Below, piece after piece: positions 2,922-10,942 of a stretch of DNA of 64,000 nt. The first letter of the stretch is position 1; every line of letters starts with the position of its first letter. Location: the NCBI RefSeq assembly GCF_002854065.1, contig NZ_CP024147.1; one strand, written 5' to 3'. Source of the DNA: Escherichia coli. Its GTDB lineage: Bacteria > Pseudomonadota > Gammaproteobacteria > Enterobacterales > Enterobacteriaceae. The notes under the pieces are model-generated. The model was not told where the DNA came from, made no database searches, and worked only from the letters and a program-made list of their open reading frames with translations. A program made the translations under genes and the position numbers.

Positions 2922-3057
2922 AGATGGTGCATCCGGGAGGATGACTCACTGGCGTTCGCCCTTCGGGCCGTTGCTAAAGCAACGTTATCCTTCCTGGTGC
3001 CTGCGGTTAATTCCGCTACCTCTTCGATATCTTCATTGCTGAAGATTTCGGAGAATA
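2922..3057 (-). repeat. Repeat unit 1: truncated tRNA-Arg 3' end (2925-2941, 17 nt) fused to a ~116-bp hairpin-rich module, directly abutting the 3' end of the first intact tRNA-Arg
   Basis: TGGTGCATCCGGGAGGA matches the 3' end of the neighbouring tRNA-Arg genes then diverges; module contains palindromes CGTTGCTAAAGCAACG and GCCCTTCGGGC; a second copy is at 3536-3651. Confidence 0.7.
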
Positions 3058-3134
3058 TGGTGCATCCGGGAGGATTCGAACCTCCGACCGCTCGGTTCGT
3101 AGCCGAGTACTCTATCCAGCTGAGCTACGGATGC
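3058..3134 (-). tRNA. argQ: tRNA-Arg (anticodon ACG)
   Basis: Reverse complement gives GCATCCGTAGCTCAGCTGGATAGAGTACTCGGCTACGAACCGAGCGGTCGGAGGTTCGAATCCTCCCGGATGCACCA; copy name assigned by order only. Confidence 0.93.
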
Positions 3135-3236
3135 ATCGGGAAAATTTATTTTACTGCTGATATTGATATCGCTACTAAAGCCATATCAAATAAGAAAATC
3201 CATCTTAACCATCATCACTGATGATTACGGAGAATA

Positions 3237-3313
3237 TGGTGCATCCGGGAGGATTCGAACCTCCGACCGCTCGGTTCGTAGCCGAGTACTCTATCCAGCT
3301 GAGCTACGGATGC
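3237..3313 (-). tRNA. argZ: tRNA-Arg (anticodon ACG)
   Basis: Identical 77-nt tRNA-Arg sequence; copy name by order only. Confidence 0.93.
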
Positions 3314-3375
3314 ATCGGGAAATTTATTTTACTGCTGATATTGATACCGCTACTAAAGCCATATCAAGTAAGAGA

Positions 3376-3452
3376 TGGTGCATCCGGGAGGATTCGAACC
3401 TCCGACCGCTCGGTTCGTAGCCGAGTACTCTATCCAGCTGAGCTACGGATGC
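3376..3452 (-). tRNA. argY: tRNA-Arg (anticodon ACG)
   Basis: Identical 77-nt tRNA-Arg sequence; copy name by order only. Confidence 0.93.
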
Positions 3453-3535
3453 ATCGGGAAACTTACTTTACTGCAGATTTTTTGATACCGCTACTAAAGC
3501 CGTATCAAGTAAGAGATGGTGCATCCGGGAGGATT

Positions 3536-3651
3536 ACTCGCCTTGCGGCTCGCCCTTCGGGCCGTTGCTAAAGCAACGTTATCCTCCCTGGTGCCTGCGG
3601 TTAGTACCGCCACCTCTTCCATACCTTCATCGCTGAAGGTTACGGAGAATA
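3536..3651 (-). repeat. Repeat unit 2: truncated tRNA-Arg 3' end (3536-3554, 19 nt) fused to a ~97-bp hairpin-rich module, directly abutting the 3' end of the fourth tRNA-Arg
   Basis: TGGTGCATCCGGGAGGATT then divergence; same CGTTGCTAAAGCAACG / GCCCTTCGGGC module as unit 1. Confidence 0.7.
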
Positions 3652-3728
3652 TGGTGCATCCGGGAGGATTCGAACCTCCGACCGCTCGGTTCGTAGCCGA
3701 GTACTCTATCCAGCTGAGCTACGGATGC
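3652..3728 (-). tRNA. argV: tRNA-Arg (anticodon ACG)
   Basis: Identical 77-nt tRNA-Arg sequence, 3 bp from tRNA-Ser. Confidence 0.93.
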
Positions 3729-3731
3729 AAA

Positions 3732-3824
3732 TGGCGGTGAGGCGGGGATTCGAACCCCGGATGCAGCTTTTGACCGCATACTCCCTTAGCAGGGGAGCGC
3801 CTTCAGCCTCTCGGCCACCTCACC
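3732..3824 (-). tRNA. serV: tRNA-Ser (anticodon GCU)
   Basis: Reverse complement gives GGTGAGGTGGCCGAGAGGCTGAAGGCGCTCCCCTGCTAAGGGAGTATGCGGTCAAAAGCTGCATCCGGGGTTCGAATCCCCGCCTCACCGCCA with long variable arm. Confidence 0.93.
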
Positions 3825-9856: not shown

Positions 9857-10942
9857 TTACTGCACGCGCGCCAGCGCCACGGCTTGTCCTAACTGCCAGA
9901 CCGCCATTGCGTAATGGGTGCTGTGGTTATAACGGGTAATGGTGTAGAAGTTCGGCAGACCGTACCAGTACTGGTAACCGGTACCGACATCCAGACGCAG
10001 CAGGCTGGCTTGTTGATGGTTGCCCAGCGGCTGCTGTGGCGTTAAACCTGCCGCGGCAAGCTGCGAAATGCTGTACCTGGTTTTGAAGCCATTTGGCAAG
10101 CCTGGAGCCTGACCGTTTGCCATTACCGCGACCTGATCGCCTTTCACCCAGCCGTGCGCTTTGAAATAGTTCGCCACGCTACCGATCGCATCAACCGGAT
10201 CCCACAGGTTGATATGCCCGTCGCCGCTGAAATCCACTGCATATTGTTTGTAAGACGACGGCATAAACTGTCCGTAGCCCATCGCCCCGGCAAAGGAACC
10301 TTTCAGATTGAGCGGATCGTCCTGCTCGTCGCGCGCCATCAGCAGGAAGGTTTCCAGCTCGCCAGAGAAATACTCCGCGCGGCGTGGGTAGTTAAATGAC
10401 AGCGTTGCCAGCGCATCGAGGATGCGAGTTTTCCCCATCACGCGCCCCCAGCGGGTTTCAACGCCGATAATCCCGACGATAATTTCCGGCGGTACGCCAT
10501 ACACCTGCCATGCGCGATTCAACGCATCTTCATACTGATTCCAGAAAACCACACCGTTCTGCACATTGTCCGGCGTAATAAATTTTTTGCGATAACGCAG
10601 CCATGCGCCGTTCGGACCTGATGGCGGTTTCACCGATGTGGTTGGTGCCTGGTTATCCATCAGCCGCAGTACCGAATCCAGACGTTTCGCCTGGGAGAGA
10701 ATTTCCTGCAACTGCTGACGATCGAAACCGTGTTTGTTCACCATTCTGTCGATGAACTGCTGGGCATTCGGGTTATTAGCGAAATCGCCGCCCATCTGCA
10801 TCACATTGTGCTGCGGCTCAAGCAGGAAGCCGCCAGACGGCGTTCCGGTGGTCGTTTCAGTCTCAGTAGGTTTTGGCTTGCTGCTACAGGCGGCAAGCAA
10901 CACAAAAAGGGGAAGCAATGTTACATAACGACGCTTGAACAT
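9857..10942 (-). CDS. mltB: Membrane-bound lytic murein transglycosylase B (lipoprotein)
   Basis: ORF with signal peptide and lipobox MFKRRYVTLLPLFVLLAACSS; start set at MFKRRY (361 aa). Confidence 0.92.
   Translation of the reverse strand: MFKRRYVTLLPLFVLLAACSSKPKPTETETTTGTPSGGFLLEPQHNVMQMGGDFANNPNAQQFIDRMVNKHGFDRQQLQEILSQAKRLDSVLRLMDNQAPTTSVKPPSGPNGAWLRYRKKFITPDNVQNGVVFWNQYEDALNRAWQVYGVPPEIIVGIIGVETRWGRVMGKTRILDALATLSFNYPRRAEYFSGELETFLLMARDEQDDPLNLKGSFAGAMGYGQFMPSSYKQYAVDFSGDGHINLWDPVDAIGSVANYFKAHGWVKGDQVAVMANGQAPGLPNGFKTRYSISQLAAAGLTPQQPLGNHQQASLLRLDVGTGYQYWYGLPNFYTITRYNHSTHYAMAVWQLGQAVALARVQ

Follow-up and report, generated by a model that had tools for sequence, protein, structure and literature searches.

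The RtT family (Rfam RF00391) was first described as 178-bp repeats behind tyrT and tyrV, where it is the source of rtT RNA. In Escherichia coli K-12 one element follows tyrT and three units of 178 nucleotides (nt) follow tyrV, all of them ending in a copy of the tRNA-Tyr 3′ end (the stub); the four elements score 133–137 bits against the Rfam RtT model, and the rttR annotation starts 7 nt past tyrV and ends with the CCA of the first stub. The K-12 lysT-valT-lysW-valZ-lysYZQ operon has an element after every tRNA-Lys gene, again with the tRNA-Lys 3′ end as its last part, and its five copies score 47–60 bits. In Actinobacillus and Klebsiella, Northern blots or RNA-seq have revealed RtT RNAs (PMC4986893; PMC4147364), and published genome comparisons describe gain, loss and replacement of RtT elements among strains (PMC7542023). 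Here we analyse a stretch of 64,000 nt of E. coli DNA (contig NZ_CP024147.1; the window), in which two structured modules, module A (3651–3517, 135 nt) and module B (3057–2925, 133 nt), follow the first and the fourth tRNA-Arg gene of the serV-argV-argY-argZ-argQ operon on the minus strand. An earlier note on this DNA, made from the sequence alone, had reported that each of these genes is followed by such a module and a copy of the tRNA 3′ end; this proved correct, the stubs being exact over 19 and 18 nt, respectively. We find that both modules are bona fide but unannotated members of the RtT family; the feature is real and largely ordinary.

Results

The Arg Modules Are Members of the RtT Family

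A covariance model, R1, was built without any Arg copies from 31 cores linked to Lys, Tyr, Pro and 5S genes, and the whole 64-kb window was searched with it, with the speed filters switched off. Module A was found with 68.9 bits (E = 6e-22, 3531–3582) and module B with 54.6 bits (E = 7.5e-17, 2939–2988), the independent part of this signal being confined to the linkers, hairpin 3 and the ...GAGT(A/C)ATCC junction; the next-best match in the 64 kb reached 12.4 bits. The closest relatives of the Arg modules are the Lys elements.

Local matches to the Rfam RtT model were obtained for both modules (33.3 bits for module A, 27 bits for module B), and the Arg copies of K-12 scored 31, 29.2 and 22.8 bits. 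Beyond RtT, Rfam gave chance-level matches only, to microRNA families and to plastid untranslated region (UTR) families antisense to the tRNAs. The Arg modules are unannotated because their Rfam scores fall under the cut-off of the family, and neither the K-12 RefSeq record nor ten PGAP-annotated genomes carry an annotation under them. A literature search likewise found no paper that mentions the Arg-operon spacers as repeats or as RNAs. The earlier note had raised the question of further copies of the module in the genome; the same core is indeed present behind K-12 tyrT, behind genes of the lysT operon and behind 5S rRNA (rrnB).

Anatomy and Predicted Fold of the Modules

Both modules begin at the base right after a tRNA CCA, that of argV for module A and that of argQ for module B. 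Each full copy is made up of a ~57-nt 5′ domain with two hairpins, a closing helix and a three-hairpin core. In the minimum free energy fold the 5′ domain of module A (3648–3597) contains a long hairpin with the loop AGCGAUG and a second hairpin, GCGGUACUAACCGC, which is maintained despite sequence changes in Enterobacter and Pseudescherichia vulneris (consensus pairs 43-56 to 46-53). The core of module A (3578–3540), delimited by sequence, fold and model R1, consists of hairpin 1 (CGTTGCTTTAGCAACG, 3578–3563), hairpin 2 (GCCCGAAGGGC, 3562–3552) and hairpin 3 (GCCGCAAGGC, 3549–3540); in module B, hairpins 1 and 2 are found at 2984–2969 and 2968–2958. The small hairpins quoted in the earlier note are therefore all present at their sites, with the sequence GCCGCAAGGC being restricted to module A. 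The stub of module A (AATCCTCCCGGATGCACCA, 3535–3517, 19 nt) is identical to the tRNA-Arg 3′ end from the T loop to the CCA, and that of module B (2942–2925, 18 nt) is likewise an exact copy. A repeat finder reported six copies of a 30-nt tRNA-end block (family D3), which are the four genes and the two stubs, and the 180-nt tRNA-plus-module units of A and B are ~95% identical (family D1).

The closing helix has 13 pairs and two bulges, and the consensus structure of the Rfam RtT model likewise supports a helix of this kind. Its 3′ strand is the stub, to which the 5′ strand is complementary: GCACCAGGGAGGAT in module A (3594–3581), supported by the fold, by pair counts and by a compensatory change in P. 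vulneris, and GCACCAGGAAGGAT in module B (3000–2987), taken from the fold. This 5′ strand, GCACCAG-GGAGG, resembles the 5′ strand of the acceptor stem (GCAUCCG in the tRNA) fused directly to the 5′ strand of the T stem (GGAGG). The 3′-terminal 78 nt are similar to a tRNA that lacks positions 8–48 and in which the three-hairpin core replaces the T loop, and the 3′ half is predicted to form a tRNA-sized (~78 nt) minihelix of acceptor and T stem with a free ACCA tail. Module B has a mismatch, GGAAGG opposite CCUCC, which also occurs in the short forms of Lys elements and matches the Tyr sequence exactly; we infer that it might be a trace of common ancestry.

Module A folds with −63 kcal/mol (z = −6.1) and module B with −47.5 kcal/mol (z = −4.45), and in both cases none of 200 dinucleotide shuffles folded as well, so that the description of the modules as structured held up. 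A consensus fold was computed from 11 Arg-type modules of five genera, among them Escherichia, Enterobacter, Pseudescherichia and Pantoea. It retains the 13-pair closing helix, hairpin 1, hairpin 2 (GCCC-GAA-GGGC), hairpin 3 and one upstream hairpin, and leaves the final four bases, ACCA, unpaired. Across the family, four of the five pairs of hairpin 3 show double changes, counts that no shuffle attains. The 5′ strand of the closing helix is specific for the type of element: GGGGAAGGAT in Tyr elements, GTGAAGGAT or GCAGG(G/A)T in Lys elements, AGAGGAT in Pro elements, CTGGAGGGT in Arg(CCG) elements and GGCAGTT in 5S-linked elements. In P. vulneris (L103, minus strand 10399–10856) two of three tandem tRNA-Arg(ACG) genes have the acceptor pair A7-T66 instead of G7-C66. 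In the module behind copy 1, the stub shows the T and the 5′ strand the corresponding A; the next tRNA copy retains G7-C66. The variant is mirrored in both strands; therefore, the stub and its partner strand evolve together with the adjacent gene.

A third, truncated module, which adds to the earlier note, was identified behind argZ by comparison of the sequence with K-12 (3236–3196, minus strand, 41 nt, plus spacer). It consists of the first 41 nt (the 5′ hairpin) without core and stub; K-12 has a full module at this site. The short argZ-argQ spacer is found at a coverage of at least 80% in 1228 of 5426 complete E. coli genomes, O157:H7 included. Individual modules are thus dispensable, the third being truncated in ~23% of complete E. 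coli genomes and module positions varying among genera. The coding potential of the modules is limited to mechanical open reading frames (ORFs), and the ORF of 42 amino acids in module A is not preserved in module B. The idea of a tpr-like peptide encoded in the modules thus found no support.

Organization of the serV-argVYZQ Operon

The window shows 100% identity to E. coli, and comparison with the K-12 annotation places csrA and yqaB on the two sides of the operon. On the minus strand, ARAGORN and Rfam identified one tRNA-Ser(GCU) gene and four tRNA-Arg(ACG) genes of identical sequence. serV, the first gene (3732–3824), has an Rfam tRNA score of 56.8 bits and, like argV (3652–3728), is confirmed by the K-12 annotation; argY, argZ and argQ, the second to fourth Arg copies, lie at 3376–3452, 3237–3313 and 3058–3134, respectively. 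Upstream of serV a consensus scan found a promoter-like site, TTGACT-16-TAATAT (3914–3887, minus strand; a consensus match only), from which a serV leader of ~55–60 nt is predicted. This agrees with the reported leader of 52–56 nt (PMC7049720). Module A is followed on the same strand by an inter-tRNA spacer of ordinary type, the argY leader (3516–3453, 64 nt), which was delimited by sequence and repeat family D4. Spacer of this type recurs after the true 3′ end of argY (D4); the spacer from argY to argZ measures 62 nt (between 3376 and 3313, minus strand). A terminator-like hairpin with a T-run (2818–2804, minus strand; a consensus match only) is located ~107 nt past module B. Since this hairpin sits between module B and yqaB, module B is predicted to lie inside the primary transcript. 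Sub-threshold Rfam matches to the Plastid-ycf2 5′ UTR family (33 bits) were obtained on the plus strand, antisense to each tRNA-Arg gene; they seem to be artefactual, the plastid family itself including a tRNA in antisense orientation.

Occurrence in Other Genomes

RtT-family elements were sought in a species-level scan with one genome per species. Many of the matches listed are chance matches in GC-rich genomes; at least ~60 true elements were obtained. Among the matches listed, ~40 elements from more than 10 genera follow a cognate-stub rule, according to which the stub equals the last 18–19 nt of the tRNA immediately upstream. Within the same set of matches the host genes are Arg(ACG), Tyr, Lys, Pro(UGG) and Pro(CGG), and the Arg(ACG) elements come from E. 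coli, E. albertii, Citrobacter, Enterobacter, Pantoea and Pseudescherichia.

The comparison of the cluster across genera, which the earlier note had thought informative, revealed that both number and position of the modules differ. Two or three of the four tRNA-Arg genes carry a module in E. coli, all four in Enterobacter sp. Bisph1, two of four in E. cloacae and one of three in P. vulneris; Pantoea stewartii has two modules plus a decayed extra one. Among E. coli strains the number of tRNA-Arg genes at the serV-arg locus ranges from one to four. The variable numbers of modules and genes are consistent with a process in which the repeated tRNA ends and spacers undergo unequal crossing-over and gene conversion.

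In two cases the duplication extends through a Rho-independent terminator, downstream of lysQ in K-12 (L003 1654–1840) and in 156-nt tandem units of Klebsiella (L047). The order there is tRNA end and terminator, element, then the tRNA-end copy and the terminator again. In an uncultured gammaproteobacterium (L077 2270–2520), tRNA-Arg(ACG) and a terminator are followed by a Pseudomonas-type unit, a 19-nt copy of the tRNA 3′ end and a second terminator-like hairpin. A further unit downstream at this locus passes the threshold of Rfam RF02902 (AaHKsRNA22; 41 bits vs. 39.8), and RF02902 may describe the same kind of element.

Relatives of the Core at Other Sites

Several elements are long forms, namely the tyrT units, Arg(CCG) elements of Marinobacterium, Lys elements of Klebsiella, Pantoea, Mixta and Rosenbergiella, and Pro elements. 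They contain the 5′ half of the T arm in sense orientation (GGTTCGA), an extra hairpin and the core, and then ATCC. Just upstream of the sense half, the complete T arm of the host tRNA is copied in antisense orientation (20–24 nt), with a shared GGAT-GAGAA-C loop variant (L002, L046, L047, L068, L084, L085, L101, L108, L123); the alignment scores of this copy are 13–18, compared to at most 12 in all shuffle sets but one. We know of no nameable mechanism that would generate an inverted copy of an uninterrupted target.

The rrnB T1-T2 region is widely used and is part of countless cloning vectors. In E. coli K-12 its spacer (L130 330–430) contains the same core and, after it, the duplicated 3′ end of 5S rRNA, AACTGCCAGGCATCAAAT. 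R1 detects it with 36.8 bits (E = 2e-10), and the core splits the contiguous 5S sequence into GAGTAGG|...|AACTGCC. Orthologous 5S-linked copies are present in Enterobacter, Superficieibacter and Siccibacter (L042, L031, L107, L109, L110).

Two further sites were found in one proteobacterial metagenome-assembled genome (MAG), both beside a decayed C-terminus of TnpB: L074 1600–1700 with 42 nt and L073 7500–7600 with 63 nt. A related element (L127 520–580) is uninterrupted at the insertion point, and the comparison of filled and empty sites looks like a clean insertion event. The position of the core at L073 and L074 after the TnpB fragment also gave rise to the idea that RtT might be a TnpB omega-RNA scaffold with the stub as guide. 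This was ruled out. Relatives of the TnpB fragment end in ...GHERLAVGIPVLQVGEDV with an uninterrupted GTAGGA|ATCCCCGTCC... (L127), IS609 of K-12 has no core, and no tnpB is located near the modules in the window. Because the L127 relative is uninterrupted, the core at L073 and L074 is an insertion and not a part of the transposon end.

Units without a stub were also observed. They are ~74 nt long, intergenic and often in tandem, with the layout hairpin 0, UGAA, hairpin 1, GCCCGAAGGG and hairpin 3, and score 24–31 bits with R1. Such loci are found in Salinicola (L087 1950–2225, four tandem units), in Stenotrophomonas (L013, L014, L063), and in Pseudomonas, Stutzerimonas and Bowmanella (L095, L115, L051, L060, L061, L099, L100, L114).

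In the IMG/VR collection, one contig (L005 12250–12434) carries two Lys-type elements near the contig end, which are probably the host flank of a prophage. A phage origin of the core was rejected, with one viral contig in 2.9 million.

Discussion

We consider it probable that modules A and B are the serV-argVYZQ copies of the RtT family, unannotated to date and built as a minihelix, with the processing and recombination set out below forming part of this interpretation. The Arg modules would be co-transcribed with the tRNAs, which we infer because they sit between the promoter-like and the terminator-like site. In the transcript, the minihelix with its ACCA tail might be handled as a tRNA by the maturation enzymes: RNase P would cut at the 5′ end of the closing helix, and RNase E together with 3′ exonucleases would trim the other end to the CCA. 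By analogy to the rtT RNA from the tyrT transcript, a by-product RNA could be released from the transcript of the Arg operon. The suggestion of the earlier note that the tRNA-like 3′ stubs may be processing substrates agrees with this predicted structure. At the DNA level, the identical tRNA ends and spacers would be substrates for unequal recombination and gene conversion, which would explain the differences in module number and position among strains and genera and also the continued identity of stub and neighbouring tRNA.

Several points weigh against this interpretation. Over their full length the modules score 29.1 (A) and 22 bits (B) with the Rfam RtT model, compared to a gathering threshold of 45. 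The training set of R1 was gathered with a hairpin 1-2 pattern that was partly derived from the Arg modules; because this pattern spanned both hairpins, hairpins 1 and 2 are not independent evidence. Covariation in the closing helix of the Arg and Lys elements is limited, and pair 16-73 is often mismatched. Regarding processing, a study of the lysT operon from the Kushner lab regards the equivalent spacers as 3′ trailers that RNase II and PNPase break down, and describes no stable spacer product (PMC4176162), and our literature search found no expression or processing data on the Arg modules. Finally, the lysQ-distal copy, the rrnB T1-T2 copy and the L077 members sit after a terminator. Members in such a position would rarely be transcribed, which argues against a general RNA function, as does the dispensability of individual modules.

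The earlier note had favoured another origin of the repeats, site-specific integration at a tRNA attB site. In a fuller version of this reading, a phage or island would have integrated into the 3′ end of tRNA-Arg and duplicated it, and a later deletion would have left ~115 nt between attL and attR. Like attL and attR, the Arg modules show a direct repeat of the tRNA 3′ end on both sides of an insert. This repeat begins in the T loop, where integrases that target tRNA genes are known to cross over, and it even runs through the terminator in the Klebsiella copies and the one distal to lysQ. The insert, however, contains no integrase, no cargo or island remnant and no conserved ORF. Its structured core recurs in many genera behind five kinds of stable-RNA genes (Tyr, Lys, Pro, Arg and 5S), also as tandem arrays, and is carried by just one of 2.9 million viral contigs. 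Moreover, the stub pairs with a type-specific complementary strand, which is unexpected for an att site. The integration footprint does not hold, because the insert is a shared structured repeat without a remnant of an element and with the stub paired to its complement; we regard it as very improbable. The second proposal of the earlier note, that remnants of additional tRNA copies are present, is correct insofar as the strands of the closing helix match the acceptor and T-stem strands of tRNA-Arg and follow the tRNA polymorphism in P. vulneris. It is the middle of the tRNA that is missing, not its 5′ portion, and the core in the T-loop position is an element of the whole family and not tRNA sequence. 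In its simple form, as decayed tRNA-Arg pseudogenes unrelated to other loci, it is refuted as a complete explanation by the core that is common to the Tyr, Lys, Pro and 5S elements (E of 1e-17 to 1e-22), and neither ARAGORN nor the Rfam tRNA model calls the modules; there is hardly any probability left for it. Functional regulatory RNAs, either small RNA (sRNA) sponges of the 3′ETS-leuZ type or tRNA mimics that modulate the stringent response, are an improbable option. RNAs of the 3′ETS-leuZ type are made from transcribed spacers and trailers of tRNA operons by tRNA-processing enzymes, and the modules derive from such spacer or trailer sequence as well. Their structure is conserved with covarying hairpins, and work cited in other papers connects rtT RNA with the stringent response. 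On the other hand, the literature search gave no target, Hfq link or phenotype for the Arg modules, the modules are dispensable at individual positions, and some family members lie behind terminators. In addition, the Arg modules are part of a repeat family with multiple copies and not, like the 3′ETS-leuZ type, a unique spacer.

A broader reading concerns the core itself, which might be a small non-autonomous insertion module for sites of the GA^AUCC type, chiefly the T loop of redundant tRNA copies, and also a comparable site near the 3′ end of 5S rRNA genes and the right-end hairpin of an IS605-family element; a gene copy that was hit would then decay to the paired minihelix. This proposal would unite the RtT RNAs, the rrnB T1-T2 spacer and the dispersed repeats of Pseudomonas and other gammaproteobacteria in one superfamily. 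It is suggested by four lines of evidence taken together. In the right-end hairpin of the IS605 family a 42-nt block (hairpins 1–3 plus GAATA) is inserted exactly between AGGA and ATCC. The long forms, ...GGTTCGA|core|ATCC..., correspond to a T arm that is split after TTCGA, and the 5S-linked elements, GAGAGTAGG|core|AACTGCCAGGCAT, to a contiguous 5S sequence split by the core, E. coli rrnB T1-T2 included. Finally, stub-less units are dispersed or in tandem in Pseudomonas, Stutzerimonas, Salinicola, Bowmanella and Stenotrophomonas. Against this stands that there is one clean comparison of filled and empty sites, in which both filled copies come from one MAG and may represent a single event, and that no enzyme was identified that would mobilise the core. 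The 5S junction, GGGA^ACTG, is unlike the T-loop junction, simple insertion does not explain the antisense copy of the whole T arm in the long forms, and short forms such as the modules of the window lack the TTCGA left flank. We therefore put the insertion module forward as a tentative possibility, with the balance of the evidence rather on the other side.

Assignment of the Arg modules to the RtT family accounts for the unusual length of the spacers in this well-known tRNA operon of E. coli, which is mainly tidying up, and for strain-level variation in the number of tRNA-Arg genes and spacers. It also indicates that the curated RtT model misses the Arg-linked branch. The Arg type is the clearest RtT case of mimicry of the complete acceptor/T-stem helix, free ACCA end included, and yields a prediction for processing by RNase P and at the 3′ end. 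That one core stands behind tRNAs for at least four amino acids, behind 5S rRNA and, as a clean insertion, in an IS end raises the possibility of an uncharacterised mobile element that is aimed at stable-RNA genes. The specific finding on the Arg modules is of modest interest; the possible superfamily of mobile modules is the part worth following.

Comparison With Described Systems

RtT-family elements share several properties with repeats like repetitive extragenic palindromes (REPs) and miniature inverted-repeat transposable elements (MITEs): they are short, non-coding and rich in hairpins, vary in copy number and show compensatory changes in the hairpins. They differ from these in that they are tied to the 3′ ends of stable RNAs in Enterobacterales and carry a copy of the end of the host gene, and to our knowledge they have no link to RAYT-type or other transposases. 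The rrnB T1-T2 spacer has the same layout of hairpins 1-2-3 as the Arg modules and, behind them, the copied 3′ end of the stable RNA that lies upstream; its host is 5S rRNA, however, it is located after the terminator, and its junction sequence is another one.

The RtT elements of the tyrT locus are, like the Arg modules, located directly 3′ of a tRNA gene in an operon and carry a ~19-nt copy of the tRNA end with the CCA. Hairpin 1, hairpin 2, the ...GAGTAATCC junction and a closing helix to the tRNA-derived end are also common to both. In contrast to them, the Arg modules represent a short form without the antisense T-arm hairpin and the extra hairpin; they have Arg(ACG) as host and another 5′ domain, and their closing helix extends over the whole acceptor stem. 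The RtT elements of the lysT operon, one behind each of the repeated tRNA-Lys genes, are like the Arg modules of the short form ...GGAT-AA-hairpin 1..., with a near-identical core and a stub that is the tRNA 3′ end. Unlike the Arg modules, they have a stub and complement specific for Lys, a closing helix of ~9 pairs with a mismatch and a longer single-stranded tail, and they pass the Rfam threshold.

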